Shown: one piece after another, positions 11,925 to 61,770 of the stretch
Layout: each line of letters opens with the position of its first letter
Numbering within the stretch: the first letter of the stretch is position 1
Assembly (NCBI GenBank): GCA_964437385.1
Contig: CAYTGX010000007.1
Span: 103-64,102, forward strand
Reading direction: 5' to 3'
DNA length: 64,000 nt
Source of the DNA: an uncultured Spirochaetaceae bacterium
GTDB taxonomy: Bacteria; Spirochaetota; Spirochaetia; SZUA-6; Fen-1364
Translations under genes and position numbers: made by a program
The notes under the pieces: generated by a model
Databases searched by the model: none
What the model was told of the DNA's origin: nothing
Seen by the model: the letters and a program-made list of their open reading frames with translations, nothing else

Positions 11925-11989
11925 AATAGTCCTCCTCCACGATTCGCGTTTTGCCCAAAAGCCCAACTGGCTCTTAGTCTCCTGAAGCC

Positions 11990-13036: not shown

Positions 13037-13054
13037 AGCTAAATCCTTTTAGTC

Positions 13055-13064
13055 AAATCGATTT
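13055..13064. promoter_or_regulatory. candidate LacI-type operator core (AAATCGATTT palindrome)
   Basis: A perfect 10-bp palindrome sits 19 nt upstream of the lacI-like start. It fits the AA.CG.TT core typical of LacI-family operators. Confidence 0.35.
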
Positions 13065-13128
13065 AGCATACCTGAATTCCCTCAAATTGTCAATTTCTTT
13101 TTTTCGCCTTTTGCCATTCGGTAAATAA

Positions 13129-14175: not shown

Positions 14176-14240
14176 AAACCTCGAGCGAATAATCGGACCT
14201 CTCGTTCAACCTGTTAGAATTAGAGAACGGGCGCGATTCT

Positions 14241-14640: not shown

Positions 14641-14644
14641 CCTT

Positions 14645-15462: not shown

Positions 15463-15716
15463 CGAACTCCATCCAGGAGGTCGAGCAACTCGCTTGTGCT
15501 GTCCAGGTTCACCCCCCCCTGGAGGCCCTTTCCCCTGAACGTGACGAGCGCCTGGCGCGCTGTGCTGGTCGCGCCTGATCGACGCAAGGCGAGCGCCGCC
15601 CTGATGGCGTCTTCCACCAGGTCCTTGAGAGTGCGGTTGCTTTCCGCTGCGACTCGCTTCAACTCGACAAGCAGGTCATCCTGGACGTCTATCGTCGTTC
15701 TCATACATAAAAACAT
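15459..15716 (-). CDS. vapB: type II antitoxin VapB
   Basis: MRTTIDVQDDLLVELKRVAAESNRTLKDLVEDAIRAAL is a typical VapB N-terminus. An alternative start is the ATG at 15704. Confidence 0.8.
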   Translation of the reverse strand: MFLCMRTTIDVQDDLLVELKRVAAESNRTLKDLVEDAIRAALALRRSGATSTARQALVTFRGKGLQGGVNLDSTSELLDLLDGVR

Positions 15717-15856
15717 ATAAACTACTCACAAATATGTCAACGCGTACCATGCGACGATTCTCCCCTGGCACGAACTATGCGGACAGAATGTCTTCTCTTT
15801 TTGCTGTTTAGTCAAAACGAAGCCGCAACGAGGATCGTATCAGGCTGGAGGACAGG

Positions 15857-16318
15857 TTAACGCAGGTTCTCCTCAAGTCCCTTGCCGACCTTGTCTCCTG
15901 GGCCAGTTTCCCGCTCCATGAGAGACTCGCTCACCGTGATAGTGGCCTCCGCTCGAATAACGGTGTTCCCTTGGGAAGCCACCGCTTCCAGGATGCAGAG
16001 TCCGGGCTCTTGAGGGGCGGTGAATCTGACAATTTCACCGCTTTGCGCTGAAAGCCTGCCCAGCCCTTCCCTTGTCGTCCAGCGGATTTCCGCTCCCTGT
16101 TCTATAGTGCGCCTGCTCTTGTCGCGCAGGACGCAGCGGAAGCCCCGCTCCGCGTTCACCTTCATGACCACTGATGAAGGGGAGATGAGGGCGCTGAAAA
16201 GCGGTCCTGGATAGTTGAAGAACTCCCGCTCGCCGGCGGGCTCATCAAGGTCCACAGCCTGGTCGTCTTGTGCGCGGCTGTCACCGGCGCTGATGGGCTC
16301 GCTTCCCTCCGCAGTCAC
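15857..16318 (-). CDS. hypothetical protein with an Ig-like beta-rich segment; possibly a gene fragment
   Basis: 153-aa ORF with a GTG start and no spaced SD. The frame stays open upstream to a TAG without an ATG. The segment VVMKVNAERGFRCVLRDKSRRTIEQGAEIRWTTREGLGRLSAQSGEIVRFTAPQEPGLCILEAVASQGNTVIRAEATITV looks like a bacterial Ig-like module. Confidence 0.35.
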   Translation of the reverse strand: MTAEGSEPISAGDSRAQDDQAVDLDEPAGEREFFNYPGPLFSALISPSSVVMKVNAERGFRCVLRDKSRRTIEQGAEIRWTTREGLGRLSAQSGEIVRFTAPQEPGLCILEAVASQGNTVIRAEATITVSESLMERETGPGDKVGKGLEENLR

Positions 16319-16462
16319 TCTCCCCCCCGCGTCGCCTGCCTCTGAAGCGGCCGCGGTGGTATCGGACCCAGCCTTCGCCCCATACGCGGACCCGCCATTG
16401 TGCTATGAATCGCTTGACAGTTCAGTGAAGCATGTTATCATTACATCAGGAGTGTAATCATT

Positions 16463-16711
16463 GTGGTGCGCACACAGATCCAGCTTACCGAGCAGCAGGC
16501 GGAGTCGCTGAAGGCTGCGGCGGCTCGTCGCGGTGTGTCCATGGCCGAGCTGATTCGGCAGTCCATCGACCAGCTGCTGGAGAAATCCGGCGATCTCTCC
16601 GTCAGGGAACTGCGCCTGAAAGCGGCAGCCGCAGCAGGGAGATTCAACTCGGGCCAGAGGGACGTCTCGGTTCGGCATGACAATTACCTTGCAGAGGTGC
16701 TCAAGAAGTGA
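16463..16711 (+). CDS. ribbon-helix-helix (CopG/VapB-type) antitoxin
   Basis: MVRTQIQLTEQQAESLKAAAARRGVSMAELIRQSIDQLL is an RHH fold signature. There is a 4-nt overlap with the downstream PIN gene. Confidence 0.8.
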   Translation: MVRTQIQLTEQQAESLKAAAARRGVSMAELIRQSIDQLLEKSGDLSVRELRLKAAAAAGRFNSGQRDVSVRHDNYLAEVLKK

Positions 16712-22356: not shown

Positions 22357-23679
22357 ATGGGAACAGGCATCCTTGTCATCGACGACAAGGTGAAGGTCTG
22401 CAAAAGCCTGGCGCAGAATTTCGAGCACCTCGGCTATCGCGCGGCCATCGCCACCAGCAGCAGGGAAGCGCTCGCGGCGTTCGCAGCGGGCGGGATCGAT
22501 GTTGTGCTCCTCGACATCATGCTGGGCGAGGAGAGCGGCATTGACGTATTGAAGAGGCTCCAGGCGGTCGACAAGACTGTCCCGGTGATCATGATCACTG
22601 CATTCGCCTCTGTGGAGACTGCCGTGCTCTCCCTCAAGCTCGGCGCCTTCGACTACGTGAAGAAGCCTCTTGATTTCGACGACCTCCTCATGACGGTGGA
22701 GAAGGCCCTCGAGTTCTCCCGGCTCCAGGAGGAGAACACCAACCTCAAATCCCGGCTCCGCGCGCTGTCCGCGACGATCGTTACCGGGGACCCCCTGATG
22801 ATCGCGCTCAGGAACAAGATGGAAAAGCTGGCGGTGACGGACCTGCCGGTACTGATCGACGGGGAGAGCGGGACGGGCAAGGAAGTCTTCGCCGATTATA
22901 TCCACGCCGCCTCGTCCCGCAGCGCGCGGCCGATGGTCAAGGTCAACTGCGTGGCCCTGCCCGAGTCCCTCCTGGACAACGAGCTTTTCGGGCATGAGAA
23001 GGGCGCCTACACGGGAGCCGATGCGGTCTTCAAGGGCCTCTTCGAGACGGCGGACGGGAGCACCCTCTTTCTCGATGAGATCGGCGACATGCCGCTCGGG
23101 ATCCAGGCGAAGATCCTGCGGACGCTGCAGAACAACGAGATCCGGCGGCTGGGAGGGAGCGCAACGATCAAGGTCGATGTGAGGTTCATCGCCGCCACGA
23201 ACAAGGACCTCGTGGACCTGACCCGGAAGAATCTCTTCCGCGAGGACCTGTACTATCGCCTCAACGCCGCCGTCCTCTCAGTCCCCTCGCTGCGGGAGCG
23301 CAAGGGGGACATCCCGCTCCTCGTCGAGCACTTCCTTTCGGAGCGCGCCGTCAACGGCCGCAAAGAGCTGGCACCCGAGGTTGCGGCGAGGTTCCAGGCC
23401 TACGACTGGCCGGGGAACGTGCGCGAGCTGAAGAACGTCGTGAACTATGCCACGGCGATATCCCTGAACGAGCGCATCGAGATGGAGGATCTGCCGGCCC
23501 ATTTCCTGGGCCAGGGCTATGCCGCCGAGCCTGCCGATATCCGCCAGGAAATGGAGAGAGACCTGATCGTGCGGGTCCTCCAGAGCACGAGGTACAATCG
23601 CTCAAGGACGGCGGAGATACTGAACATGAGCCGCAAGACCCTCTACAGCAAGATGGCGAAGTATGGCCTCAACGCCTGA
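22357..23679 (+). CDS. sigma-54-dependent response regulator (NtrC family: REC-AAA+-Fis HTH)
   Basis: REC domain (ILVIDDK...VVLLDIMLGEESG), AAA+ Walker A GESGTGKE, sigma-54 contact loop GAYTGA, and C-terminal HTH RSRTAEILNMSRKTLYSKMAKYGL. Confidence 0.9.
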   Translation: MGTGILVIDDKVKVCKSLAQNFEHLGYRAAIATSSREALAAFAAGGIDVVLLDIMLGEESGIDVLKRLQAVDKTVPVIMITAFASVETAVLSLKLGAFDYVKKPLDFDDLLMTVEKALEFSRLQEENTNLKSRLRALSATIVTGDPLMIALRNKMEKLAVTDLPVLIDGESGTGKEVFADYIHAASSRSARPMVKVNCVALPESLLDNELFGHEKGAYTGADAVFKGLFETADGSTLFLDEIGDMPLGIQAKILRTLQNNEIRRLGGSATIKVDVRFIAATNKDLVDLTRKNLFREDLYYRLNAAVLSVPSLRERKGDIPLLVEHFLSERAVNGRKELAPEVAARFQAYDWPGNVRELKNVVNYATAISLNERIEMEDLPAHFLGQGYAAEPADIRQEMERDLIVRVLQSTRYNRSRTAEILNMSRKTLYSKMAKYGLNA

Positions 23680-30797: not shown

Positions 30798-32903
30798 CTA
30801 TGTTTCGAGCTCCACGATCGTGTAGATTCCGACATGCTTCAGGGCCAGCTTGTTCTTCCGAAGTGAGACGGAAATTGCAGGATTCTCCGGGAAGCTGTGG
30901 ACCTTTGTTCCCTTTGCCTCGAACGCGAGCTCAAAAGAGGCATCCGTGGGATCGATCCTGTGCGTGCCCGGATTGTAGTTGTAATTGACAATGTGCAGGA
31001 GGAACCTGTTCTTGTCCCTGTCCTTGTGCACGGCAATGCCGAACTTTTCGGAGTCTTTCGCGCTGACCACTCCCTTGCTTTTCGCCAGTTCGGCAACAAG
31101 GAGCCCCATGTCCTGGGCCGCATAGCTCCTGCAGGAGGAGAGAGCCTTCACGCTGCGCGCCAGCGTGATCACGCTGGCGCCGGCCTGAGCGAATGCCTGG
31201 ATCGCCTTTGCGCTCTGGTCATCCATCACGAATGCATCCGGAACAATCACTTTTTTGTACGCAGAAAGCCGGGCGGGCGTCAGGACCTCGTCCGGACTGT
31301 TGAACAGGACGTTGTACAGGACATGACGATTGCTCAGGCTCTGCACAAGCTCGAAGAAGCTGCGGAACCGGCCGTCCCGGGCAAATGCACCCTGCCTGCC
31401 CAGCTCCTCCCCTTCGGCAAACTCCACCGGCACGATCTCCTGGTCATCCGGTTCCGTCAGCAGGTTCTCATACGCGGAAAGCGCGTCGTAGACCACGGCG
31501 ATATCTGCGCAGGGATTCTTCGGGAAAAGGCTCTCGCGCTCGCTGAGCCAGGAACCGAGCTTCTTCAGCACTCTGAGATCCGGCCAGAACGCGTCCTTGA
31601 CCTGGTTCTGAAGCCAGGAACCATAGGGAAACGATACGTGGAACCCGTGCGCCATCGGCTCGAGGGCGAACACGATGAACCTGTCATTGATGTTGTTCTT
31701 GATATCGTCCAGCATGTCCCTGACATACTGGTTCGGATCTTCGACAAAGCAGGATTCTTTTCCGTTCAGCCAGCCAAAGGCGAACTTGTACCAGCCGTCC
31801 TGGCGGAGCTCGATGCTCGTCTTCTCTCCTGCAAGGATGTCCAGGTGCTTCTTGCACGGCCACGAATACGGGTAGCACTGGAAGAGGTTTGCCGTGACCC
31901 TCATGGCCTTTCCCCGTGTGCGGGTGGAGTACTCCCGCAGGTGGCGGGAGAGCTCTCGTACAACCCATTCTATGCTTGCCATCTGCATGTCGGTGAAATT
32001 CCTGAAAAGCGGTATCTTCCACCTGTTGTTCCCGTTGGAGGCCACGAGGTCCTTGTCCTTGTATCCCCGGCCGCGCAGATACTGCCTGTAGTCGAAGTCC
32101 GCACTATCACCCGCATCCTGGGGCAGCGGGAGAGCGTGCGCCGTGATGTACGCCCTGAACTTGTCCATGCATTCGCGGCAGAAGCATCCGGCGTTCTGCA
32201 GCAGGTGCTTCTGCGTATCATACTCGTCTATGTGCAGGCCGCCTGCCCCGGCGTCACACATCATTTCGATGTCGCGTTTCATGTAGCGGAGGTACGAGTC
32301 CTTGTTGGAGCACGGAGAGTAGCATTTGTGGTCATGTCCCGGAGCCATCAGCCACGCGGAGAGGATATTCCTCCCTTCAAGAGAGACAGCCTTGAACTCC
32401 TCAAGAAAATCTTCGACCTTCTTTCCCTTGTAGTCCAGCAGCCCGTCGGGAAAATACTTTTCAATGGGAGAAAAGATCTTCGGGTACGCGTTGGTGGAGA
32501 GCTCCCGCATGCCCACGTATTTTCTATTCCGGGAGGCGCCCCTCAGGATATTGAGGGACAGGAGCTCTGATTCGTCGTCGCTGAGCTCCGCCCCGAACTC
32601 CCAGAGCTGGGCTTTCCACAGCACGGAGAAGACCTCGATCCCCCTTTTTGCGCACTCCTGGCAGAACTCCTTGTCATTGACGAAGCCGTACAACCGCAGC
32701 CGCGGGGGAATGACATCATTGGCCTCGCGGTCCAGGTACGGCAGGCCGATTGCCCCGCTGCCCAGGCATGACCATATCAGGGTGTTGGCCTTGATCTCTT
32801 CGATGTCTTCGATCATGTGCATGTTCTTCATTGGAAGACTGGGATGGTAGTTCCACATGTCCCTGAACCAGCCCATGAAATACAAACCTCGCAGCATATT
32901 CAT
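30798..32903 (-). CDS. large hypothetical protein, possibly a glycoside-hydrolase-like TIM barrel with a GH42-like C-terminal domain
   Basis: 701-aa ORF with coding-like composition. It contains GGLHIDEY and a CFCRECMDKF cysteine motif. The C-terminal KKVIVPDAFVMDDQSAKAIQAFAQAGASVITLAR resembles the trimerisation/GATase-like domain of GH42 enzymes. The family assignment is only a guess. Confidence 0.4.
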   Translation of the reverse strand: MNMLRGLYFMGWFRDMWNYHPSLPMKNMHMIEDIEEIKANTLIWSCLGSGAIGLPYLDREANDVIPPRLRLYGFVNDKEFCQECAKRGIEVFSVLWKAQLWEFGAELSDDESELLSLNILRGASRNRKYVGMRELSTNAYPKIFSPIEKYFPDGLLDYKGKKVEDFLEEFKAVSLEGRNILSAWLMAPGHDHKCYSPCSNKDSYLRYMKRDIEMMCDAGAGGLHIDEYDTQKHLLQNAGCFCRECMDKFRAYITAHALPLPQDAGDSADFDYRQYLRGRGYKDKDLVASNGNNRWKIPLFRNFTDMQMASIEWVVRELSRHLREYSTRTRGKAMRVTANLFQCYPYSWPCKKHLDILAGEKTSIELRQDGWYKFAFGWLNGKESCFVEDPNQYVRDMLDDIKNNINDRFIVFALEPMAHGFHVSFPYGSWLQNQVKDAFWPDLRVLKKLGSWLSERESLFPKNPCADIAVVYDALSAYENLLTEPDDQEIVPVEFAEGEELGRQGAFARDGRFRSFFELVQSLSNRHVLYNVLFNSPDEVLTPARLSAYKKVIVPDAFVMDDQSAKAIQAFAQAGASVITLARSVKALSSCRSYAAQDMGLLVAELAKSKGVVSAKDSEKFGIAVHKDRDKNRFLLHIVNYNYNPGTHRIDPTDASFELAFEAKGTKVHSFPENPAISVSLRKNKLALKHVGIYTIVELET

Positions 32904-50579: not shown

Positions 50580-51782
50580 CTACTTCGGAGGCCTGAACAG
50601 CCCCAGCGTCTCATGCGCAGTCGGAAATACCGCGGCGAGCATGGCCGGGTCCTTGATTCCCCAGAACTCCTCCGCCACGGTGCGATACAGCGTGCGGAAG
50701 TCCATCGTGTATTTCATGTCTCCCTGGTCAAGGTCTGCAGGGGACAGGGATGGCTGGGCTCCGTAGAATCCGCCCTTCACCCGTCCGCCGAGGATGAAGA
50801 CGGGTGCGGCGGTCCCGTGATCCGTGCCGTTGCTGGCGTTCTCTTCCACGCGCCGGCCGAACTCGGAGTAGGTCACTATCGCCACTCTGTCCCAGAGACC
50901 CGCCTGGACAAGGTTGCCACGGAACGCCGCCACGGCTCCGGCCAGCTCGCCCAGGAGCCGTTCCTGGACAGGCTTTTCCCCGCTGTGCAGGTCGAACCCG
51001 CGCAGGGTGAGCTTGACCACCGGAACGAGCAAACCCGCGGCAAGGAGCTGGAAGCTCGTTTTCATCTGCCGGCCGAGCCCGGTGTCGGGGAACGGGACCG
51101 CAGGCTCCTTGATCGACGGCTTGATGTGTGCCAGAACCGACGCGGCGGCCAGGATGTCCTGCTGAACCGAGCCGATGTAGCTCAAGTGTGCCGAGTCATC
51201 CGCTGACTCATCAGCCATCTGGGCCGCGTCCCGCAGAAATGCGTCCACGTTGTCCAGGGAGATGTTGTGCATGCCCGGTCCTTTGAGGGGTCCTGCCTGG
51301 GTTTCCCCCAGGATCAACGAATCAGCGAAGATACCGGCGGGACGGGTGGCCGGGGTCAGAACACGTGCAAGCCAGCCTGTGCTCAGCACCTCATGGGAAG
51401 AGGAGGCGGTCTCCCAGATATCGGTGGACCGGAAGTGAGACCGGTTCGGGTCGGGATAGCCGACGCCGAGCGCAATCGCGAAGTCTCCCGCCTTCCACGC
51501 GGTCATGAGGGGCGCAAGGGCGGGATGGAGCGCAAGGGTTCCGCTTACTCTGATAAGGTCGGACAATGACGGAGCAACGGTCGTTCGCACTGCGGCGTAC
51601 GCAGGATCGGTGAACGGGATCACCGTATCCAGGCCGTCGTTGCCGCCGGCGAGCTGAATCAGGACAAGGGTGTTCACGGGAGCCAGGGCGGCATCAGGCT
51701 CCGCGGCCAGTTGCTGCGGCGCCCGGAGCATGGCGACGAGCGCGAAAAGAAGCGGGAGGGCGGATCGGGTTCTCATCGTCAA
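50580..51782 (-). CDS. DUF1501 domain-containing protein (sulfatase-like fold, secreted)
   Basis: Signal peptide MTMRTRSALPLLFALVAMLRAP, then LAGGNDGLDTVIP, NRSHFRSTDIWETA and SEFGRRVEENASNGTDHGTAAP. DUF1501 pattern. Confidence 0.85.
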   Translation of the reverse strand: MTMRTRSALPLLFALVAMLRAPQQLAAEPDAALAPVNTLVLIQLAGGNDGLDTVIPFTDPAYAAVRTTVAPSLSDLIRVSGTLALHPALAPLMTAWKAGDFAIALGVGYPDPNRSHFRSTDIWETASSSHEVLSTGWLARVLTPATRPAGIFADSLILGETQAGPLKGPGMHNISLDNVDAFLRDAAQMADESADDSAHLSYIGSVQQDILAAASVLAHIKPSIKEPAVPFPDTGLGRQMKTSFQLLAAGLLVPVVKLTLRGFDLHSGEKPVQERLLGELAGAVAAFRGNLVQAGLWDRVAIVTYSEFGRRVEENASNGTDHGTAAPVFILGGRVKGGFYGAQPSLSPADLDQGDMKYTMDFRTLYRTVAEEFWGIKDPAMLAAVFPTAHETLGLFRPPK

Positions 51783-51785
51783 TTC

Positions 51786-53024
51786 CTATTCGAGGTTGGC
51801 TGCTGCCATCTGGGATTGCCTGCGGAAGTAGTTCGTAAGATCGGCAATGTCCCTGCGCCGTTCAAGGAGTGTGGATGCGTCGATCCAGTCCTGCCCCCAG
51901 GGCCACCCCTTCACGCTGATGGGGTTGAACAGGTCCTGACCGAGCCGGGAGAGCTGGTAGGAAAGCCGTTTCGGGTCGTAGCCGGAAATCCCCCATGTGC
52001 GGATGAAGCCGACCAGCAGGTCCACAGGGGATTTGATCAGCGCGCTTCGATTCTCCGGCGCCCAGAAGGCATCGCTCTCGAAGATCTGACGGAGAAGGGG
52101 CGTGAGCTGATACCCGGAGGCGCGGAAGGAGGCGGCCCACCCCTGGACCAGCGCCGGGTCGGGCTGCGGAGAGATGAAATACCGCCACAGCTTTTCTATG
52201 AGAAAGACGGCGGGGCGAGCCTGCTGGAGGATGATGTCCACGATGTCATCTCCGTTGAAATTTCCCGTCTTGCCGAGAAAGGTCTTTTCGCCGTCGTCGT
52301 GACGCCGCGGCTCGAATCTCGTTGTCCCCGCGGACCTGTCCACGGTGAGGCCCGTGAAGGCGCGCGCCGCCTCTTTCACGTCCTGCTCGCTGTAGTTGCC
52401 TTCCCCCATGGTGAAGAGCTCGAGAAGCTCGCGGGCGTAGTTCTCGTTCGGCTTTCCTTTCACATTGGCTTCGTTGTCCAGGTAGAGCACCATGGCGGGA
52501 TCCCGGGAGACGGCGTGCAGGAGCGTGCCGAAGCTCCCGGTTCCCAGCCGCCGAAGGAGAAGGTCCTGCTGGAGGAGCAGCTCGGGAGAGTTGGTTTTCT
52601 CCAGGCTGGAGGTGAAATGGTTGTGCCAGAACAGGACCATTTTCTCGGTGAGCGGGCTCGTGGACGTGACGAGACCGCCGATGAACCAGGCGCGCAGCCC
52701 CTGCCTGCGGCTCTCCAGTGCCTGGTCAAAGGCCTTCTTTGCTTCCGGGTCCGGCGGATGGGTCTTGTCCCCGGGGGGCCGGGGGAAGGGAGGAACGCTC
52801 CATGCCGGCGGGGTGTCCGCGGGGCTTGTCCGCAGTCCGCTGATCATGAACTCAACCGCCTCCGTTCGGGAAAGCGGGGCCAGCTCGGCAATGGCGCGCG
52901 GCGGCGCTCCAAAACCGGTGCGATCGAGCAGGTGAACGGCATCATCGTAGTCCAGGGCAAAAGCAGCAGTGGGGACAAAGAGCAGGCACGCAAGCGCGAA
53001 GACAGGGAAAAGGCGAGGCAGCAT
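51786..53024 (-). CDS. DUF1800 domain-containing protein
   Basis: LLDRTGFG, FWHNHFTS, MVLYLDN and NENYARELLELFTMG...YSEQDVKEAARAFTG. DUF1800 pattern, paired as usual with DUF1501. Confidence 0.85.
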   Translation of the reverse strand: MLPRLFPVFALACLLFVPTAAFALDYDDAVHLLDRTGFGAPPRAIAELAPLSRTEAVEFMISGLRTSPADTPPAWSVPPFPRPPGDKTHPPDPEAKKAFDQALESRRQGLRAWFIGGLVTSTSPLTEKMVLFWHNHFTSSLEKTNSPELLLQQDLLLRRLGTGSFGTLLHAVSRDPAMVLYLDNEANVKGKPNENYARELLELFTMGEGNYSEQDVKEAARAFTGLTVDRSAGTTRFEPRRHDDGEKTFLGKTGNFNGDDIVDIILQQARPAVFLIEKLWRYFISPQPDPALVQGWAASFRASGYQLTPLLRQIFESDAFWAPENRSALIKSPVDLLVGFIRTWGISGYDPKRLSYQLSRLGQDLFNPISVKGWPWGQDWIDASTLLERRRDIADLTNYFRRQSQMAAANLE

Positions 53025-53141: not shown

Positions 53142-55742
53142 ATGGAAAAATTGAAGGTCTCCAACGGCATCTACTGGGTCGAGGTGCCGGAAGCGGATCT
53201 GCGAATCCTCTGCGGGTGTCCGGCAGACAGCGTCAAACACCTGATGAAGCGCGGTCTGATCACGCAGAGGCAGAAGGCCGGGGTCAGCTATGAGACGGGA
53301 CCGAACGCCATCCTCCTCTGCGACTCGCCCATCCAGAAGGGCTGCTTCACGAATCTCTCCGAGTTCCCCGTCCTCCAGATGCTCTACCGGCAGGGCATGA
53401 TCATACCCGGACATCCGAACAATACAGGCAGAAAGCCGATGCTCATTGGCCTGGAGGACCAGGTCCGCTCGCAGGCCCAGTACATCTTTCGGGGCAACTA
53501 CGGCCTGGCGTCGGAAGAAGAGCTCACCGCATGCGGTGTACCGGAGGAGACCGCGCACGAGATTATGCGGATCAAGCGCTGGTTCGCATTCGGCAGGATC
53601 CGGGAAACCGAAGAGCTCTTGTCCATGAAGATCGTGGACAAGGACGCCATCGAGCTTGCTCCCGGCGTCTTTGTGCACAGGAAAGGAATAAACCGCTGGG
53701 AGTTCCTGGCAGACGGGGAGTCCGTGGAAGTGGACCTCAACCTGGCAGACGGGGAGGAGTACCAGGCGCCGTTCGATCTCGGCTCCCACACCCTGCACCG
53801 CGAGTACTTCTCCGTGATTCACATCGGAGAGGGAGACGGGTGGGACCCGGAAAAGCCCTGCATGGGGAGCCTCCTCTGCTTCCAGGGCCGCCTGTACCTG
53901 ATAGACGCGGGTCCGAACATCCTCCACACGCTGAAGGCACTGGGCATCGGCGTGAATGAGATCGAGGGGATCTTCCACACCCACTGCCATGACGATCACT
54001 TTGCAGGGCTCACCTCCCTGGTGCGCTCGGACAGGCGGCTGCGCTACTTTGCCGCCCCCTGCGTGCGGGCAAGCGTGGAGAAGAAACTGGCCGCGCTCAT
54101 GGGAATCGATCAGCGCCGATTCGCGCGCCTGTTCGACGTGCATGACCTCGTGCCGGGAGAATGGAACTCGGTCGAGGGCCTGGAGGTGCGCCCCGTGTTC
54201 GCCCCTCACCCTGTGGAGAACACCGTGCTCTTCTTCCGCGCGCAGGATGAAAAGGGGGTGAAGACCTACACGCATCTTGCAGACCTGACCTCCCTGGACG
54301 TCCTGGAGCAGATGGTGACGAGTGATCCGCGCAAGGACGGGATATCCCCCGCAACGCGGGACCGGTTCAAGAAGGAGATGCTGGAACCCGTGGACTTGAA
54401 GAAGGTGGATGCCGGGGGAGGCCGCATCCACGGAAAGCCGGAGGACTTCTCCGGCGATTCCTCTCGAAAGATCATCATGAGCCATTCCGCGGTACCGCTC
54501 ACGGAGGCGCAGAAGGAAATCGGCTCCAGTGCGGCATTCGGGCAGAGCGATGTCCTGATCCCCGTGCAGCACCAGACCTATATCCTGCGCTCCGCCCACC
54601 GCTATCTCAAATCGTACTTTCCCGAGGTTTCCTCCCATGAACTGGAGATGCTGATCAACTGCGGCATTGCTGCATTCAACGCCGGCTCCATCATGATCAG
54701 AAAGGGCGAGCGCAACACCGACATATTCCTGATCCTGAGCGGAACCGCGGAGGTGATAGACCGGGAGGCAGGCTTCCACAGCCGGCAGGCTGCCGGGGCG
54801 CTTGCCGGAGAGCTCTCCGCGCTGTCACACGAGCCGTCCCACCGGACCTTCCGCGCGGAGAGCGATCTGGCCGCCCTGCGCATACCCTGCGAAGCCTACA
54901 GGCTTTTCATCCGCAGAAACGGCATCGAGGAGGCGGTGCTCAAGATCAGGGAGAACCGCCAGCTTCTCTTCGCCACACGGCTGTTCGGCGACATGGCCTC
55001 CTTCACCGCGCAGCGGGAGATTGCGAGAGTGATGGAAAAGCGGCAGCTTGCAAAAGGAGAGACTGCCGTCCATGGTTCAGAGCTGTGCCTGTACCTCGTG
55101 GCGGACGGGGAGATCTCGCTCCAGTCGGATGAAACTCCCATCGAGGTCATCTCCGGCGGTGACTACTGGGGAGAGCTGTCCGTGGTGGAGGGAATCCCGG
55201 CAGTCTGCCAGGCGCTGGCGCTCCGGGATTCCGTGTACTATGCCATTCCCGCCGAAGCGCTGAAGGAGTGCCCCAGCGTTTTTCTGAAGCTCCTCGAGGT
55301 CTTTGACCGGCGCCTGCAGATCCTCCGCACGAAATTCGAGTTCGAGTGGCAGACATTCTACACCGTCGGGCTGTCGGAGATCGACGACGATCACAGGAAG
55401 ATTTTCGCCCTGGCAAATGACCTGTCCGCGCACCCCGCGGAGGGAGCGGTGGCCCGCCGCGAACAGATGGCGGCATTGCTCGAGCTGGTGCGCGCGCATT
55501 TCAAGAAGGAAGAATCACTGCTGGAGAGCCGTGCGTATCCGCGCCTGCCGGCGCAGAAGGAGGACCACCAGGCGCTCCTGTCAGAGCTCGCGGAAGCGGC
55601 GAAGACAGGAGAAACGGGGGATGCCCTGCTCAAGGACTGGCTTATCCGCCATACCTTGATCGAGGACCGCTTGTACAAGGACTTTCTGGCCGCCCCGACG
55701 GGGGCCGTCCCGCCGGCGGGCAAGAAAGACAGGAGGCGCTGA
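53142..55742 (+). CDS. multidomain signalling protein: unknown N-domain + MBL-fold hydrolase + 2x cyclic-nucleotide-binding + hemerythrin-like domain
   Basis: HTHCHDDH (the HxHxDH metallo-beta-lactamase motif). CNB-1: FLILSGTAEVID...GELSAL...HRTFRAES. CNB-2: LYLVADGEISLQ...GELSVVEG. C-terminus: IDDDHRKIF...HFKKEE...WLIRHTLIEDRLY (bacteriohemerythrin motifs). Confidence 0.8.
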   Translation: MEKLKVSNGIYWVEVPEADLRILCGCPADSVKHLMKRGLITQRQKAGVSYETGPNAILLCDSPIQKGCFTNLSEFPVLQMLYRQGMIIPGHPNNTGRKPMLIGLEDQVRSQAQYIFRGNYGLASEEELTACGVPEETAHEIMRIKRWFAFGRIRETEELLSMKIVDKDAIELAPGVFVHRKGINRWEFLADGESVEVDLNLADGEEYQAPFDLGSHTLHREYFSVIHIGEGDGWDPEKPCMGSLLCFQGRLYLIDAGPNILHTLKALGIGVNEIEGIFHTHCHDDHFAGLTSLVRSDRRLRYFAAPCVRASVEKKLAALMGIDQRRFARLFDVHDLVPGEWNSVEGLEVRPVFAPHPVENTVLFFRAQDEKGVKTYTHLADLTSLDVLEQMVTSDPRKDGISPATRDRFKKEMLEPVDLKKVDAGGGRIHGKPEDFSGDSSRKIIMSHSAVPLTEAQKEIGSSAAFGQSDVLIPVQHQTYILRSAHRYLKSYFPEVSSHELEMLINCGIAAFNAGSIMIRKGERNTDIFLILSGTAEVIDREAGFHSRQAAGALAGELSALSHEPSHRTFRAESDLAALRIPCEAYRLFIRRNGIEEAVLKIRENRQLLFATRLFGDMASFTAQREIARVMEKRQLAKGETAVHGSELCLYLVADGEISLQSDETPIEVISGGDYWGELSVVEGIPAVCQALALRDSVYYAIPAEALKECPSVFLKLLEVFDRRLQILRTKFEFEWQTFYTVGLSEIDDDHRKIFALANDLSAHPAEGAVARREQMAALLELVRAHFKKEESLLESRAYPRLPAQKEDHQALLSELAEAAKTGETGDALLKDWLIRHTLIEDRLYKDFLAAPTGAVPPAGKKDRRR

Positions 55743-56458
55743 TGGGCGCCTTCCAGAAAGCATACTTCGATCTCGTCTACAATCCCCTCTATGACGCGAC
55801 AACCGCGAGGTTGAGCCGCTACAAAACCCTTCAGCAGAAGTGCCTCCAGGCGCTGGATCTGGGGGAGGCCCGCAGCCTCCTGTGCGTCGGTCTCGGGACG
55901 GGCAATGAGCTGACGGCCGCCCTGCAGGCTGCCCCGCGGATCAGGATATCGGGAATCGACCTGTCACCTTCGGCCCTGGCGTCCAGCCGGAGAAAACTGC
56001 GCCGGGCGGGCAGAACGGCGGACCTGCAGATCATGGACGCAGCCGTCATCCGCTACCCGGACGGCAGTTTCGATCGCGCGCTGTGCGTGCACGTGCTGGA
56101 CTTCGTGGAGGACCCGTGGCCGGCGGTTCAGGAGATCGTGCGCGTCCTGGAACCGGGCGGCCGATTCGTGGTGACGTTTCCTTCGCGGCTGGAAGGGACC
56201 GCCCTCGGTGTTGCCCTTGCGCGGGACGAGGTCCGCACTTCCCTGCGGTCCGGGCGTCATCCGCTGGCCGTGGTAGGAGACCTCCTGTCCAAATTCGCCA
56301 TCGGGCTCGCATACGTGCCCCTGCTCGCGCGCACCGGGCATCGCACATTTTCCGAGCAGCAGGTACGCAGGCTCTTCGAGAGGCTGCCGGTGCGCGGACT
56401 TGCCATTGAGGAAGAACTGGCATACCAGGATCTGATAGTGACGGGAGAACGGGTATGA
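55742..56458 (+). CDS. class I SAM-dependent methyltransferase
   Basis: Motif I LLCVGLGTGNE and post-I ISGIDLS, then VLEPGGRFVV. The ATG overlaps the upstream TGA (TGATG). Confidence 0.8.
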   Translation: MGAFQKAYFDLVYNPLYDATTARLSRYKTLQQKCLQALDLGEARSLLCVGLGTGNELTAALQAAPRIRISGIDLSPSALASSRRKLRRAGRTADLQIMDAAVIRYPDGSFDRALCVHVLDFVEDPWPAVQEIVRVLEPGGRFVVTFPSRLEGTALGVALARDEVRTSLRSGRHPLAVVGDLLSKFAIGLAYVPLLARTGHRTFSEQQVRRLFERLPVRGLAIEEELAYQDLIVTGERV

Positions 56459-56490: not shown

Positions 56491-58098
56491 ATGCTGCCCG
56501 AAGACGCCTATTTCAAAAACCTTGATCGGGATGAGTTGTGGAAGCGCTACTGCGGGTTCCTCGACCTGGGGATAAATGAGTTCCTGCAGATCCAGCGCGC
56601 GCTGCTTACCGAAGAGCTGGCCCTTGTCTCGGACAGCACGCTCGGACGGAAGATCCTCGGACCCCGGCCTCCGCGGACCATCGAGGAGTTCCGCGAATCG
56701 GTTCCCTTCACGAGTTACAGCGACTACGAGCCGTGCTTGAGTGAGAAGCGGGAGGACACGCTTGCCGTGAAACCCGCGGTCTGGTGTCATTCATCCGGCC
56801 GCAGCGGAAAGTTCAAGTGGATCCCCCACAGCGAGCCGATCATGGAGAAAGCCGCGCGCAACTCCGTGGGAATCTTCATCCTGTCCGCCGCGTCCCGCCG
56901 CGGGGAGGTTGCGGTAGCGCCCGGCGTCCGTATCCTCACGGGGATTCCCCTCGCGCCCTACACATCGGGCACCATGTTCGAGAACTTGCGGAAACGGTTC
57001 ACCTTTCAGCCTCTCCCGCCCCCGGATCTGGTCAGGTCATTGCCGTTTCCCGAACAGGTCAGCCGCGCTTTCGAGATGGCGCTCCGGGACGGGTTCGATT
57101 TTGCCGGGGCCATTGGCAGCGTGATGGTGCGCATGGGGGAACAGATGGCAGGCCATGCCGCGAGGACGTCGAAGCTGTCCCCGTCCACGTTCCATCCCAA
57201 GGTGCTCTTCAGATTGCTCCGCGGTCTGCTCAAGAGCTGGACCCAGAACCGGCCCGTCTTTCCCCGGGACTTGTGGAGCCCCCGCGGAATGATCATCAGC
57301 GGCGTCGACGCGAGCATTTATCGCGACGACATCGAGAAGTACTGGGGTGTCACACCTTTCGACATGTACGCGAGCACCGAGACGATGTTCATGGCAATGC
57401 AGAGCTGGACCAAGGCACACATGACGTTCCTGCCTGATTCGGTCTTCCTGGAGTTTGTCCCGCACAGGGGCGGAGAAGAAGAGGCGCCGGGGCACGAAAG
57501 GACCCTGTTGCTGGACCAGCTCGAAGAGGGCGGCCTCTATGAGATCATCATCACGCAGTTCCACGGAATGCCTCTCCTGCGCTACCGCATCGGGGATGTG
57601 ATCAGGGTGGTGAGCATGGGAGACGAGGAAGCAGGGATCACGCTCCCGCAGATCGAGGTCCGCCGGAAAGTCGGAGAGGCAATCAACCTGGGAGGACTGT
57701 GCAACCTGGACGAGCGGGCGCTGTGGGGCGCTCTGGCGGCCACGGGGCTTCGCTATACCGAATGGACGGCTTTCAAGGAGTACGATCACCATCAGACCTT
57801 TCTTCGGCTGGTCATCGAGCTGAAAGAGCCATCTGCCGCTGCAGAGGTCAGCCGACGCATGCACGAGCAGCTCAAGAAGATCGACGCGGACTATGGGGAC
57901 GTCGAGGGGTACCTGGGCGTCAACCCGATCCGCACGACCGTCATCTGCGGCGGGACCTTCAGCCGCTATGCCGAGGCGAGGATTCGCGAAGGGGCCGCGC
58001 TCTCCCACCTGAAGCCCGCCCATGTGAATCCGCTGCCCGAGATGGTGAAGGTGCTGATCCAGGGCTCGGTGGTTGATGAGGAGAAGCTGCAGCAATGA
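56491..58098 (+). CDS. GH3-family (auxin-responsive-promoter/JAR1-like) adenylate-forming enzyme
   Basis: ...TIEEFRESVPFTSYSDYEPCL...VWCHSSGRSGKFKWIPHS parallels the GH3 pattern F...VP..TYEDL.P.I...F..SSGT..G..K.IP. 535 aa, with a central YASTE block. Confidence 0.75.
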   Translation: MLPEDAYFKNLDRDELWKRYCGFLDLGINEFLQIQRALLTEELALVSDSTLGRKILGPRPPRTIEEFRESVPFTSYSDYEPCLSEKREDTLAVKPAVWCHSSGRSGKFKWIPHSEPIMEKAARNSVGIFILSAASRRGEVAVAPGVRILTGIPLAPYTSGTMFENLRKRFTFQPLPPPDLVRSLPFPEQVSRAFEMALRDGFDFAGAIGSVMVRMGEQMAGHAARTSKLSPSTFHPKVLFRLLRGLLKSWTQNRPVFPRDLWSPRGMIISGVDASIYRDDIEKYWGVTPFDMYASTETMFMAMQSWTKAHMTFLPDSVFLEFVPHRGGEEEAPGHERTLLLDQLEEGGLYEIIITQFHGMPLLRYRIGDVIRVVSMGDEEAGITLPQIEVRRKVGEAINLGGLCNLDERALWGALAATGLRYTEWTAFKEYDHHQTFLRLVIELKEPSAAAEVSRRMHEQLKKIDADYGDVEGYLGVNPIRTTVICGGTFSRYAEARIREGAALSHLKPAHVNPLPEMVKVLIQGSVVDEEKLQQ

Positions 58099-60908
58099 CC
58101 AGCGTCGGTTTCGTCCTCAGTCCATTGATTGCCGCGGCAATGACCCTCATTCTCGGCATCCTTGTCTTCCCCGCGGTCTACCGGGACAGACGCCGCCGGG
58201 TCTTCCTTCTTGTCCTGTTCAGCGTAGAGCTCTGGGCAGTCTTCACCTTTGCAATGCGCTTCAGCCGGGTCGAGACGGCGGCAATGATCTGGGACCGCGT
58301 GATCTCCGTCTGCCTCCTCTTCTTCTTCGTGGCCTTCTTCCACTTCTGCCACCTCTACATCGGCAGCAAGAGCCGCTGGCCGATATATGTCCTGTACGCG
58401 GCCACGGTTGTCGCGGCGGGAATCGCGCTGTTCACCGACCTCATGGTCAAGGGCGTCACGCGGTTCCAGGACGGCTACGCCCCCCAGGTGGGCCCCGCAG
58501 CGTACGCCCTGCTGGGGCCCGTGCAGATACTCCTCATCGCAAACGTGATCCGCCTGCTGCGCGCGAGCCGCGGTGAAGCCTCGGTTGTCAACAGCAGGCG
58601 CCTGCTGGTGCTCGCCATTGCGGGACTGCTCCCGTTCCTCGGAAGCGCCGCGGACGCCTTCACGGATCTTCCACCCCTGGGCATCTGGGCCAATCTCGCC
58701 TTCTGCGCGATCTGCTCCATCGTCGTCCTGCACTATCGCCTGTTCGACATGCGTGCGCTTGCCCGCACGGGCCTTGTCCGTCTCCTCATCGGCTCGATGA
58801 TCGCCGCTCCCTACATCGCCGCCATCCTCGTTGCCAACGCGCTGCTGCGGGACAGCAAGAGCCTGCTCTGGATCTATGTGGTCTCCATTGCCGTCTATGC
58901 GCTCGTCATGTGGCCGGCCTACGAATGGGCGCGGCGAAGCCTCGACCGGCTTTTCAACAGCGAGAAGTATGACCACCTGCAGGAGATGCGGGACCTTGCC
59001 CGCGGCGCGGACGCCCTCAGCGGATCCCACGAAACCTCCAACAAGCTGACTGCCCTCATGCAGCGGGCGCTGAACGCCACGTCCGTTTCGCTTCTGCAGC
59101 CCCTTTCGGACGGCCAGGGGATGTGTCGTGTTGCGAGCAATGGTTCGCCCTGCAGCGCAGAGGGCGCGATCCTTGGCGCGGCGAGCCCCCTCGTGGCCTG
59201 GTTCCACAGGCACAAAGCCACGCTCTCCATCAGGACCCTGACCGTAGAGCCATTGCTGCAGAACATCCCCCGGGCGGAAAAGGCGGCTCTGGACGATCTT
59301 CACACCACGCTGCTGGCGCCGCTCCTGACCGCGCACGGCTCCCTGACGGGCATCCTCGTGCTCGGCCCGAAGGCCAGCCGCCGGCAGTACAGTCCGGACG
59401 ACATCCAGCTCCTGGAGAACCTCGGCAGCGAGGCGGCCATGGCGCTGGAGAACGCCGGGCTCTACCGGGATGCGGTGCGGGCGCGGGAGACCCTTGAAGC
59501 GTGGCTGAACAATCTGCCGGACGTGGTCGCAATAGTCGACCGGAACAACGTCATCCGGTTCCTGAACAGGGAAGGCGCGGACCGTCTGGGCGCCCGGCCG
59601 GGCCAGCGCTCTTTTCTGCTCTCGGTCCCCCAGGAGGAGAACGGCGTTCCCCGGCGTTTCGCGGAAACGATCCGGGGGAGAGAGTACGAGATCGCCTCCG
59701 CGCCGCTCGTGGAGCCGGAAGGGCAGCTCTCCTCGGTGTTCGTGATGCGCGACATCACGGAGCGAAGACAGCAGCAGGCGGAGAGGGAGCAGCTTGAGGC
59801 CCGCGCGCGGCTGGCAAGCCACCTGGCGTCAATCGGGGAGATGGCATCGGGGATCGCACACGAGATCAACAACCCGCTGACTGCGGTGATCGGCTACAGC
59901 CAGCTCCTGAACGAGGAATCGCTGCCCGAAGAAGCGCGCGAGTCCGTGCGCCAGATCCGCCAGGGCGCCACCCGGGTTGCGGGTATTGTGCAGAGGCTGC
60001 TGACGTTTGCCCGACAGCGAAAACCGCAGCGCGTGGCAATGGACATGAACGAGGTCATCCGCTCCACCCTTGCGCTGCGCGAATATGCCATGCGGACGGG
60101 TCATATCTTTGTCACCACGCGGCTGGACCCGTCGCTTCCTCTCACCATAGCGGACGGCCAGCAGATGCAGCAGGTGGTGCTCAACCTGGTGGTCAATGCC
60201 GAGTGGGCCATGAGCATCTCCCATGGGAGGGGAGTGCTTCGAATCGTGAGCGAAACGCAGGGAGAGAACCTTCATGTCATCGTCCAGGACGATGGTCCGG
60301 GGGTTCCCCGGGAGATCCAGGACCGCATCTTCGACCCTTTCTTCACCACCCGGGAGATCGGGCAGGGCACGGGGCTGGGACTCAGCATCTGCCACGGGAT
60401 CGTGAGCGAGCACGGCGGCAGGATCTGGGTGGTGAGCGACGGGGCGCAGGGGAGCGAGTTTCACCTGCTCATTCCCATCGTGGTCCCCGACTCCCCGCCT
60501 GAACAGGCGGCCGGCGTGCGGCGGGAGCCCGCACGGCCGCACACGCGCATGCTCGTCGTGGACGACGAGCAGTCCATCCGCGAGCTGCTGAAGGCGATTC
60601 TCGAGCCCATGGGTCACAAAGTCGACGTTGCCGCTGACGGCCGCTCCGCGATCGAGCGCGTCACCACGAATCGCTACGGCGTCATCCTGCTCGATGTCCG
60701 CATGCCCGACATGAGCGGGCTGGAGGTTTTCCAGCAGTTGAAGAAGATCGCGGGCTCGATCGCCTCCCGGGTGGTGTTCATGACCGGTGACATGATGGCT
60801 GACGAGACACGCGCCCTGCTGGAGCAGACGGGAGCGCCCGCGCTGGCCAAGCCCTTTGAGTCGAAGGCGCTCATGGCGGCCCTGGAAAAGATTCTGACAG
60901 CGCGCTGA
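58095..60908 (+). CDS. hybrid sensor histidine kinase (7TM N-domain, GAF, PAS, HisKA, HATPase_c, REC)
   Basis: Seven hydrophobic segments at the N-terminus, a GAF-like block (GILVLGPKASRRQYSPDDIQLLENLG), H-box AHEINNPLTAVIGYSQLL, DDGPGV, GLGLSI, and a C-terminal REC domain (MLVVDDEQSIREL...ILLDVRMPDMSG). ATGA overlap with the GH3 gene. Confidence 0.9.
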   Translation: MTSVGFVLSPLIAAAMTLILGILVFPAVYRDRRRRVFLLVLFSVELWAVFTFAMRFSRVETAAMIWDRVISVCLLFFFVAFFHFCHLYIGSKSRWPIYVLYAATVVAAGIALFTDLMVKGVTRFQDGYAPQVGPAAYALLGPVQILLIANVIRLLRASRGEASVVNSRRLLVLAIAGLLPFLGSAADAFTDLPPLGIWANLAFCAICSIVVLHYRLFDMRALARTGLVRLLIGSMIAAPYIAAILVANALLRDSKSLLWIYVVSIAVYALVMWPAYEWARRSLDRLFNSEKYDHLQEMRDLARGADALSGSHETSNKLTALMQRALNATSVSLLQPLSDGQGMCRVASNGSPCSAEGAILGAASPLVAWFHRHKATLSIRTLTVEPLLQNIPRAEKAALDDLHTTLLAPLLTAHGSLTGILVLGPKASRRQYSPDDIQLLENLGSEAAMALENAGLYRDAVRARETLEAWLNNLPDVVAIVDRNNVIRFLNREGADRLGARPGQRSFLLSVPQEENGVPRRFAETIRGREYEIASAPLVEPEGQLSSVFVMRDITERRQQQAEREQLEARARLASHLASIGEMASGIAHEINNPLTAVIGYSQLLNEESLPEEARESVRQIRQGATRVAGIVQRLLTFARQRKPQRVAMDMNEVIRSTLALREYAMRTGHIFVTTRLDPSLPLTIADGQQMQQVVLNLVVNAEWAMSISHGRGVLRIVSETQGENLHVIVQDDGPGVPREIQDRIFDPFFTTREIGQGTGLGLSICHGIVSEHGGRIWVVSDGAQGSEFHLLIPIVVPDSPPEQAAGVRREPARPHTRMLVVDDEQSIRELLKAILEPMGHKVDVAADGRSAIERVTTNRYGVILLDVRMPDMSGLEVFQQLKKIAGSIASRVVFMTGDMMADETRALLEQTGAPALAKPFESKALMAALEKILTAR

Positions 60909-61012: not shown

Positions 61013-61324
61013 ATGCCGGGCAGTGCGGTCGAGAAAACCTTTGACGCCCTGGGAAATCCAGTCAGAAGAAAGATCCTGCGCATTCTCAATGCCCAGCCGC
61101 ACGCGGTCGGTGAGATCGCCTCCGTACTGCCCGTCAGCCGCCCCGCTGTTTCCAAGCACCTGCGCATCCTGGAAAAAGCCGATCTCGTGTCCCACGAAAG
61201 GCAGGGAAGCCGCAACGTATTCACCCTGAACAGGAAGGGCCTGCGCTCGGCACAGGCATACCTGGAGGATTTCTGGGAGGGGGCGCTGGCTCGATTCAAA
61301 ATGGCGGCGGAGAACAGGAAATGA
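61013..61324 (+). CDS. ArsR/SmtB-family transcriptional regulator
   Basis: FDALGNPVRRKILRILNAQPHAVGEIASVLPVSRPAVSKHLRILEKADLV is a winged HTH of the ArsR family. Confidence 0.9.
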   Translation: MPGSAVEKTFDALGNPVRRKILRILNAQPHAVGEIASVLPVSRPAVSKHLRILEKADLVSHERQGSRNVFTLNRKGLRSAQAYLEDFWEGALARFKMAAENRK

Positions 61325-61770
61325 ATGAACCTGTCGTGAAGAGTGTGCGTGTTGAATGCCCGATTCACGACGCGTTCGTGACGTTCACCGCACGCATCGA
61401 TCTCTGGTGGCCCATGGCCCATCGCAGGTTTCCAGACTCCGTCGTGGTCATGGAGCCGTGGACGGGCGGCGGATTCTTCGAAAAGGCCCAGGACGGGCAG
61501 GAAGCGCGGCTGGGCAATGTGGTCCGCTGCGAACCTCCTCACGCCCTGGCCTACACCTGGTACCCGGGCGCGATCGAAAAGCCCACGCTCGTCCAGGTCA
61601 GCTTTGTGCAGGAGCCGGGCGCAGTCCTGGTCACCGTGACGCATGCCGTGGGAGAGAGCGGCCTCGGAGATGAGTGGCCCACGCGCGCGCGGCGCTTCGC
61701 CAGGAACTGGGACGTGGTCCTCCCCGCCTTTGCGGCACTTTTGAAATCGGAAGACTCGGTCTTGCCCTAA
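61321..61770 (+). CDS. SRPBCC-superfamily protein (AHSA1-like)
   Basis: 4-nt overlap with arsR. VRVECPIHDAFVTFTARIDLWWP...YTWYPG...VTVTH. This is the common ArsR-SRPBCC pairing. Confidence 0.8.
   Translation: MNEPVVKSVRVECPIHDAFVTFTARIDLWWPMAHRRFPDSVVVMEPWTGGGFFEKAQDGQEARLGNVVRCEPPHALAYTWYPGAIEKPTLVQVSFVQEPGAVLVTVTHAVGESGLGDEWPTRARRFARNWDVVLPAFAALLKSEDSVLP

Follow-up and report, generated by a model that had tools for sequence, protein, structure and literature searches.

An 866-residue, five-domain protein in an uncultured spirochete

We analyzed a 64,000-nucleotide stretch of DNA (the window) from contig CAYTGX010000007.1 of an uncultured Spirochaetaceae bacterium, and focus here on one gene, whose 866-aa product joins an N-terminal lobe (N-lobe), a catalytic metallo-beta-lactamase (MBL) lobe, two cyclic nucleotide-binding (CNB) fold domains and a hemerythrin (Hr) domain (Table 1). 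We tentatively read this protein as a sensor-regulated phosphodiesterase. The open reading frame (ORF) starts with ATG, with a purine-rich AAGGGG ~8 nt upstream, and the N-terminus of the product (MEK.KV..G) is kept in more than 100 full-length homologs; the gene is real. An earlier note on this DNA had described an 866-aa ORF with MBL, tandem CNB and Hr domains. In hidden Markov model (HMM) scans all of these scored above the cut-offs, including the CNB and Hr domains on which that note had made its reading depend, each of which exceeded the Pfam cut-off. Mean column conservation is highest in the N-lobe (0.76), followed by the MBL domain (0.71), the CNB domains (0.54 and 0.59) and the Hr domain (0.49).

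Table 1. Features of the gene and its downstream neighbors, in window coordinates (AF2, AlphaFold2; TMt, template modeling score by target; PBC, phosphate-binding cassette; PKG, the Plasmodium protein used for alignment; SAM, S-adenosylmethionine).
Feature	Residues	Position	Strand	Basis
Whole gene: N-lobe, catalytic MBL lobe, CNB-1, CNB-2, Hr	866 aa	53142..55742	+	ORF, HMM domains, >100 full-length homologs
N-lobe	1-210	53142..53771	+	AF2 fold; by prediction an MBL-like lobe, truncated and degenerate, that packs against the catalytic lobe
Catalytic MBL lobe	~218-473	53793..54560	+	Pfam Lactamase_B_2 and Lactamase_B; Foldseek TMt 0.6-0.7
HTHCHDDH; HxHxDH = H281-x-H283-x-D285-H286	279-286	53976..53999	+	Read from sequence, column counts
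CNB-fold domain 1; G556-E557 present, PBC Arg position = S566	~490-608	54609..54965	+	Pfam cNMP_binding, PKG alignment
CNB-fold domain 2; G677-E678 present, Arg position = A687	~612-730	54975..55331	+	Pfam cNMP_binding, PKG alignment
Bacteriohemerythrin-type domain	~734-850	55341..55691	+	TIGR02481, 4xpx alignment, column counts
Class I SAM methyltransferase		55742-56458	+	Pfam
GH3-family adenylating enzyme		56491-58098	+	Pfam
HisKA_7TM-GAF-PAS hybrid histidine kinase		58095-60908	+	Pfam

The catalytic lobe and its relatives

The catalytic lobe matched Pfam Lactamase_B_2 (PF12706; 38.4 bits vs. a cut-off of 27) and Lactamase_B (PF00753; 29.9 vs. 22.7). The five metal-binding motifs of the MBL superfamily (Asp; HxHxDH; His; Asp/Cys; His) are all present in the protein, and D255, H281, H283, D285, H286, H356, D381 and H448, together with H378 and H430, are invariant in 117 homologs. 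The HxHxDH motif had previously been placed at about aa 288; the motif stands, and its position is corrected in Table 1.

The AF2 model has the alpha-beta/beta-alpha sandwich of the MBL fold with a predicted local distance difference test score (pLDDT) of 93, and Foldseek matched it with probability 1.00 to many MBL structures, at TMt values up to 0.71. The best matches in the Protein Data Bank (PDB) were Apyc1 (7u2r), PhnP-family proteins (6b9v and 3g1p), RNase Z (1y44), ZiPD (2cbn), YhfI (6kns) and ELAC1; another was a Brucella protein crystallized with GMP or AMP (3md7, 3qh8). The sole specific Pfam family that was approached is Apyc1, which 22 of 27 family members match (best E 9e-7), all of them under its 50-bit cut-off. 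As to the MBL subfamily, which the earlier note had left between several candidates, the lobe is nearest in fold to Apyc1, YhfI, PhnP and RNase Z, in favor of a phosphodiesterase type, and reached the cut-off of none of the specific families. Judged by sequence and model, the lobe would then be of the phosphodiesterase type and lie outside all curated families. That note had also allowed for a well-characterized, non-signaling family with conserved neighbors that would explain the core; no curated family fits, and no neighbor is conserved among 80 loci.

A conserved N-terminal lobe found only with the MBL domain

In Pfam and NCBIfam HMM scans, aa 1-240 had no match to any family, so at the level of sequence the earlier statement that the first ~230 aa could not be assigned holds. 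As a separate module of its own, however, the region did not hold up, being tied to the MBL domain as its obligate partner lobe. When its profile (aa 1-240) was searched against 1.84 billion representative proteins, 299 clusters were returned, and an MBL domain followed the N-region in every sequence long enough to judge; no N-lobe was seen apart from an MBL domain.

The AF2 model of aa 1-482, made from a 27-sequence alignment, had a pLDDT of 93.1 and a predicted template modeling score (pTM) of 0.91. Because this joint model is very confident, the N-lobe and the MBL domain are predicted to form one compact unit. Modeled by itself, the N-lobe gave a moderate model (pLDDT 76), whose top PDB matches were without exception MBL-fold proteins (8gyg, RNase Z, Apyc1, ZiPD and ELAC1) with probabilities of 0.96-0.99 and template modeling (TM) scores of only 0.30-0.39. 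The order of secondary-structure elements in aa 1-200 of the AF2 model parallels that in aa 223-380. With aa 1-482 as the Foldseek query, ELAC2 (8rr1_E) spans both lobes, with a TM-score by query (TMq) of 0.52 over 676 columns and a root-mean-square deviation of 9.7 Å, and Trz1 likewise aligns across both; single-lobe phosphodiesterases reached TMq values of 0.36-0.40. An hhalign comparison of the N-lobe and MBL-lobe profiles returned a probability of 0.1, that is, no sequence relationship. An internal duplication was on this ground rejected at the sequence level, and the MBL-like character of the N-lobe is a matter of predicted structure only. As modeled, the N-region has the look of an MBL-like lobe, truncated and degenerate, standing in for the second subunit of homodimeric relatives.

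Tandem CNB-fold domains and an atypical hemerythrin domain

Pfam cNMP_binding (PF00027) matched two stretches of the protein (E 1.1e-19; 70.6 bits vs. a cut-off of 27.5), with GELSAL at aa 556 and GELSVV at aa 677. In a phmmer alignment to Plasmodium PKG, S566 of CNB-1 and A687 of CNB-2 lie opposite the phosphate-binding Arg of RSAT. R568 falls two positions past that Arg, and R571 two past the Thr of RSAT, after the phosphate-binding motif. Among the 117 homologs, position 566 is Ser or Ala (51 and 40 sequences, respectively) and R568 occurs in only 61; T569 and R571 are conserved but sit on the C-terminal side of the place of the canonical Arg. The earlier note had seen the phosphate-binding Arg of CNB-1 in HRTFRAES, which proved wrong, S566 sitting at that position and R568 two residues late, and had judged CNB-2 to lack its Arg, which is right, the residue there being A687.

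The C-terminal domain matched Pfam Hemerythrin (38.4 bits vs. 25.3) and NCBIfam TIGR02481 (75 bits vs. 51.75), while for NCBIfam NF033749 (bact_hemeryth) its 73.3 bits lie below the cut-off of 84. Its best PDB sequence matches were the bacteriohemerythrin of M. capsulatus (4xpx) and DcrH-Hr. The motifs IDDDH (aa 747), HFKKEE (aa 786) and IRHTLIED (aa 835) are present, and alignment to 4xpx puts H751, H786, E790, Q805, H809, H837 and D842 at the ligand positions. Measured against the canonical diiron set (H, H-x3-E, H-x3-H, H-x4-D), six of seven ligands are in place. The bacteriohemerythrin signature reported before is thus present in its motifs, has the support of TIGR02481 and not of NF033749, and falls one ligand short of a full diiron site. 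Since six ligands are conserved, metal binding by the domain is likely, despite the non-canonical site predicted from the sequence.

Distribution and fusion partners

More than 100 full-length public proteins share the whole architecture at 48-92% identity. Their database names are only 'hemerythrin', 'cyclic nucleotide-binding domain-containing protein' or 'transporter substrate-binding domain-containing protein', which carry no functional information. The N-lobe and MBL pair is more widespread, with at least 567 loci in a scan of one genome per GTDB species. The nearest loci are in metagenome-assembled genomes (MAGs) of uncultured Spirochaetota, 93% identical over aa 1-482, and other hosts include Desulfobacterales, Magnetococcales, SAR324, Cytophagales, Syntrophomonas, Nitrospirota and Rhodospirillaceae. 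Orthologs that are full length, Hr domain included, occur in the cultured Paramagnetospirillum marisnigri SP-1, Magnetospirillum moscoviense BB-1 and Magnetospirillum sp. UT-4. Most hosts belong to groups that we read as typically anaerobic or microaerophilic (Spirochaetota, Desulfobacterales, Magnetospirillum and Magnetococcales). Several MAGs carry two paralogs.

A census of architectures was taken over the best-scoring of the 299 clusters. N-MBL-CNB-CNB was the arrangement in 30 clusters and N-MBL-CNB-CNB-Hr in 13, plus several with a divergent tail; N-MBL stood alone in 10, and in 9 an N-terminal extension preceded N-MBL. Pfam assigns these extensions to REC, GAF, CHASE2 or SBP_bac_3 (P0121, P0147, P0139, P0142 and P0215 are among the fused members). 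Such varied sensor fusions (REC, GAF, CHASE2, SBP_bac_3, CNB, Hr) are the pattern typical of a signaling output domain.

Genomic neighborhood

Three genes, for the methyltransferase, the GH3 enzyme and the hybrid kinase of Table 1 (the trio), follow directly after the MBL gene. The MBL gene and the methyltransferase gene overlap by 1 nt (TGATG), with AGGAGG upstream; a 32-nt gap precedes the GH3 gene, and the GH3 and kinase genes overlap by 4 nt. The trio also directly follows the MBL gene in a 92%-identical relative (L010; ~4456-9638). In an 86%-identical one (L001), an inverted ArsR/AHSA1 pair (10591-11366, minus strand) lies between the MBL gene and the trio (11460-16622), whereas in the window an ArsR-type helix-turn-helix protein of 103 aa and a small partner of 149 aa (165 aa in L001) are encoded after the kinase, at 61013-61770 on the plus strand. 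This minor local rearrangement interrupts the 'operon'. At loci of 71% identity or less the trio is absent, and neighbors are entirely different at 49-70%. All-against-all clustering of the neighbors at 80 loci gave no family in more than 10 loci, the largest clusters being generic histidine kinase/REC/HD, ABC and SDR proteins.

The tight four-gene operon described earlier is therefore real in its spacing and carries no functional information, being confined to close relatives. We rejected an operon-based function, as the trio is limited to relatives of at least 86% identity, is interrupted in L001, and no neighbor is conserved in the 80 loci. The enzyme is a stand-alone unit; the local operon may co-express the MBL gene with the trio in this lineage, and the trio is a local neighbor unit, probably without a part in the enzyme's function. 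An anti-phage defense role was rejected as well: the only PADLOC match was that of the CNB region to Pycsar effectors that bear CNB domains, with no system-level match.

Several side observations concern these surroundings. The trio keeps together in each of three related genomes of Spirochaetota (those of the window, L001 and L010). In NCBIfam, its methyltransferase and GH3 proteins weakly match the DVU_1556 methyltransferase family, the DVU_1553 AMP-ligase family and OlsH. In L001, PALP, JAB and ThiS/ThiF genes come after the trio. Genes for HD-domain signaling proteins adjoin distant homologs (L002 and L004-L006, 4265-7859, minus strand; L003, 8652-9179, plus strand; L027, 3500-6037, plus strand); these are of the types HDOD+HD, HD_4 and HK-REC-HD_5, suggestive of nucleotide-messenger neighborhoods and not conserved overall. 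Divergent from the MBL gene, across 117 nt of intergenic DNA, is a pair for a DUF1800 protein (412 aa) and a DUF1501 protein (400 aa) at 50580-53024 on the minus strand.

Elsewhere in the window, 22357-23679 encodes a sigma-54 activator (REC-AAA-HTH_8), followed by an overlapping 631-aa ORF (to 25558) with an N-terminal ABC_tran ATPase joined to PAS, HisKA and HATPase_c, an unusual fusion of an ABC ATPase with a histidine kinase. The ORFs at 9498-12143 (plus strand, 881 aa) and 30798-32903 (minus strand, 701 aa) matched no Pfam family at E <= 1e-5. At the upstream end of L001 lies an unannotated 701-aa gene, cut by the edge of the locus.

Proposed function and its precedents

The observations above show how the domains are arranged, which ligands are conserved, what the fold is related to, where the family occurs and what it is fused to. 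The reading we prefer, and hold tentatively at somewhat less than even confidence, is that of a sensor-regulated phosphodiesterase of class-II type (MBL-fold) that acts as a signaling output and would most likely hydrolyze a 3',5'-cyclic nucleotide. Such an enzyme would most likely destroy a nucleotide messenger in response to O2 or redox state. Eukaryotic phosphodiesterases of 3',5'-cyclic nucleotide monophosphates (cNMPs) are regulated by REC in RegA, by GAF in PDE2/5/6 and by CNB in GbpA and GbpB. We favor 3',5'-cNMPs as substrate because the fused regulators parallel those of the eukaryotic enzymes and because structural relatives hydrolyze cNMPs. The occurrence of paralogs within a genome and the lack of a conserved neighbor fit a stand-alone signaling enzyme. 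We count the mostly anaerobic or microaerophilic hosts in favor of the preferred reading too.

What the enzyme hydrolyzes, which ligand its CNB domains bind, and how and in which direction its activity is regulated, we infer by analogy with characterized systems. The core (aa 1-473) would be an intramolecular pseudo-dimer, in which the degenerate MBL-like N-lobe replaces the second subunit of the RNase Z, Apyc1 and YhfI homodimers. As in RNase Z, H281, H283 and H356 would hold one metal and D285, H286 and H448 the other, with D381 bridging the two and H430 near the phosphate. The activity of the core would be set by whatever sensor is fused to it. In the 866-aa protein the CNB tandem might gate the core, inactive or active according to the bound ligand, as in Dictyostelium GbpA and GbpB, and the C-terminal Hr diiron domain might sense O2 or the redox state, on the model of VcBhr-DGC and Bhr-HD-GYP.

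Several characterized systems come close to parts of this picture. In Dictyostelium discoideum, GbpA (PdeD/PDE5) and GbpB (PdeE/PDE6), 'class IIb' enzymes, have an MBL domain followed by two CNB domains, and ligand binding to the CNB domains activates cNMP hydrolysis (PMC11988041). By Pfam order the 866-aa protein also has an MBL domain and then two CNB domains, a likeness of domain layout drawn from the description of those enzymes. It differs in being bacterial, in adding a C-terminal Hr domain, and in that both its CNB domains are without the canonical PBC Arg; it is also known here from sequence alone.

Phage Apyc1, an anti-Pycsar protein, and B. subtilis YhfI are homodimeric MBL-fold cNMP phosphodiesterases (PMC9117128). 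The HxHxDH binuclear site is a common feature, and the catalytic lobe aligns to Apyc1-type structures 7u2r and 7t28 with TMt ~0.70-0.71 and to 6kns with 0.68-0.71. In contrast to the 866-aa protein, these are single-domain homodimers of ~245 aa without sensors, whose partner subunit seems, from the model, to be replaced here by a linked degenerate lobe. The long-form tRNase Z enzymes ELAC2 and Trz1 have an N-terminal non-catalytic MBL-like lobe and a C-terminal catalytic lobe in one chain, the arrangement that the model suggests for the core. There is no detectable sequence relationship, however, and the N-lobe of the 866-aa protein is shorter (~210 aa) and more conserved than its own catalytic lobe; unlike these enzymes, the protein carries sensor domains. 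PhnP and a PhnP-family diphosphatase (3g1p, 6b9v; catalytic-lobe TMt 0.66-0.69) are top structural matches and, as phosphodiesterases, belong to the same MBL subgroup. They differ in being small metabolic enzymes without regulation, encoded in a conserved phn operon context that the 866-aa protein does not have.

In Vibrio cholerae Bhr-DGC (VcBhr-DGC) and Ferrovum Bhr-HD-GYP, the redox/O2 state of the diiron site controls the output, and the reduced form is more active (PMC8846402). As in these two proteins and the chemoreceptor DcrH, a bacteriohemerythrin domain is fused to a signaling output in the 866-aa protein. The output here, however, is an MBL enzyme rather than GGDEF, HD-GYP or a methyl-accepting chemotaxis protein, and the Hr domain is C-terminal, behind two CNB domains, with Gln805 in place of one His ligand.

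Evidence against the preferred reading, and alternatives

A number of results weigh against a cNMP phosphodiesterase under CNB and Hr control. The canonical phosphate-binding cassette (Gly-Glu plus the Arg of R-[ST]-A) was found in neither CNB domain, although Gly-Glu is present. Across the family, the pattern G-E...R-[STAG]-A occurred in 0 of 116 sequences of the Hr clade and, among 72 other representatives of the family, in only 2. In favor of the preferred reading, a few members bear an extra CNB domain of canonical type. An example is P0215, one of the two with the pattern, where the motif GEVGILEHKPRSAT lies in a third CNB domain; this protein has another 320 aa without an assigned family. 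Because both CNB domains are family-wide without the canonical Arg, cNMP sensing and binding cannot be assumed, even though by sequence the CNB fold is certain. In the Hr domain, the first His of the HxxxH pair is Q805 (Gln in 56, Ala in 25 and His in 14 of the homologs; Gln, Ala, Leu or Val in most), and the bridging Asp, D842, is Asn or His in 42 of 117.

For the catalytic lobe, Apyc1 (PF23023) scored 19.2-20 bits vs. 50, over aa 245-294 only. The RNase Z models TIGR02651 and NF000801 gave 39.4 bits vs. 292.95 and 36.4 vs. 252, in the His-motif region only, and class IIa PDEase_II (PF02112, HxHLDH) had no match at E <= 0.01. The fold itself does not fix the substrate, because structural neighbors also include RNases, a diphosphatase and an arylsulfatase. 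Finally, a scan of ten large ORFs of the window turned up no nucleotide cyclase. The earlier note had proposed a redox-gated cNMP phosphodiesterase, or a hydrolase for another molecule. What survives of this is an MBL enzyme with invariant metal ligands fused to sensors, with phosphodiesterase as the best guess; the cNMP sensing cannot be taken for granted with the PBC Arg missing, and the redox sensor is reduced to six of seven ligands.

These points leave room for other substrates. The first alternative, which we think rather unlikely though the strongest of its kind, keeps the phosphodiesterase and changes the messenger: the substrate would be c-di-NMP, a cyclic oligonucleotide, a 2',3'-cNMP, a linear dinucleotide or another phosphodiester, and the CNB domains would sense it or some other non-cNMP ligand. 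The loss of the PBC Arg throughout the family, with Gly-Glu, T569 and R571 kept, suggests a conserved, different ligand, and the very conserved N-lobe (0.76) suggests a specific, possibly larger substrate; HD-domain signaling genes stand beside the homologs L002, L003, L004 and L027. No positive pointer to any particular alternative substrate was found, however. The characterized MBL enzymes nearest in fold that have small-molecule specificity act on cyclic mononucleotides (PMC9117128), and the sole characterized enzymes with MBL and two CNB domains are cNMP phosphodiesterases (PMC11988041).

A regulated RNA or oligonucleotide endonuclease resembling long-form tRNase Z, in which the non-catalytic N-lobe would position RNA for the C-terminal lobe, is improbable in our view. 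RNase Z is the best NCBIfam match for the His-motif region; RNase Z, ZiPD and ELAC1 rank high in the structural search, ELAC2 and Trz1 align over both lobes, and in our own comparison by column counts the H430/H448 spacing is that of the HEAT and HST histidines of RNase Z. The RNase Z score is nevertheless far under its cut-off (39 bits vs. 293), and hhalign nowhere links the N-lobe to the MBL lobe, which leaves a duplication of the long-form tRNase Z type without sequence support. Fusions to REC, GAF, CHASE2, SBP, CNB and Hr, together with paralogs, are typical of second-messenger enzymes and not of housekeeping RNases.

Least probable of all, and by our estimate very unlikely, is a non-phosphodiester MBL chemistry (sulfatase, lactonase, thioesterase or dioxygenase) on a small metabolite, here perhaps tied to the methyltransferase and GH3 enzyme: the best PDB sequence match is an MBL-fold arylsulfatase (8gyg, E 1.5e-4; also a structural match, TMt 0.63) and the gene is translationally coupled to those two in the window, but the 8gyg sequence match covers only the generic His-motif region, the coupling is limited to relatives of at least 86% identity, is interrupted in one and has no conserved counterpart among the 80 loci, and the ligand set with its extra H430 fits phosphodiesterases.

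Implications

An MBL phosphodiesterase with CNB regulators was already known from Dictyostelium, as were Hr-regulated messenger enzymes from bacteria. In a literature search we found no paper joining MBL, CNB and hemerythrin. New here, besides this combination, are an obligate and highly conserved N-lobe of putative pseudo-MBL type, the loss of the canonical PBC Arg throughout the family, an Hr domain with six ligands, and the breadth of an entirely uncharacterized bacterial family. In the boldest reading, which we regard as possible yet doubtful, the N-lobe and MBL domain make up an unrecognized bacterial signal-output module, a phosphodiesterase that is a covalent pseudo-dimer, with its highly conserved non-catalytic lobe forming the substrate site. 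The CNB domains would have lost phosphate binding of the cAMP/cGMP type and would sense another ligand, and with a six-ligand Hr domain the module would link O2 or redox state to the turnover of a messenger other than cAMP or cGMP in anaerobes and microaerophiles.

The atypical CNB and Hr sites raise testable questions about the ligand sensed, and genetics is feasible, as cultured Magnetospirillum strains carry full-length orthologs. The core may be a case of convergent design, in which a signaling enzyme arrived at the pseudo-dimer arrangement of long-form tRNase Z. The degradation of cAMP and cGMP in bacteria is poorly mapped compared with the turnover of c-di-GMP. If the phosphodiesterase reading is true, the family would be a major unstudied class of second-messenger phosphodiesterase, wired to REC, GAF, CHASE2, CNB and hemerythrin sensors, and would provide a direct O2/redox input into nucleotide signaling in Spirochaetota, sulfate reducers and magnetotactic bacteria.

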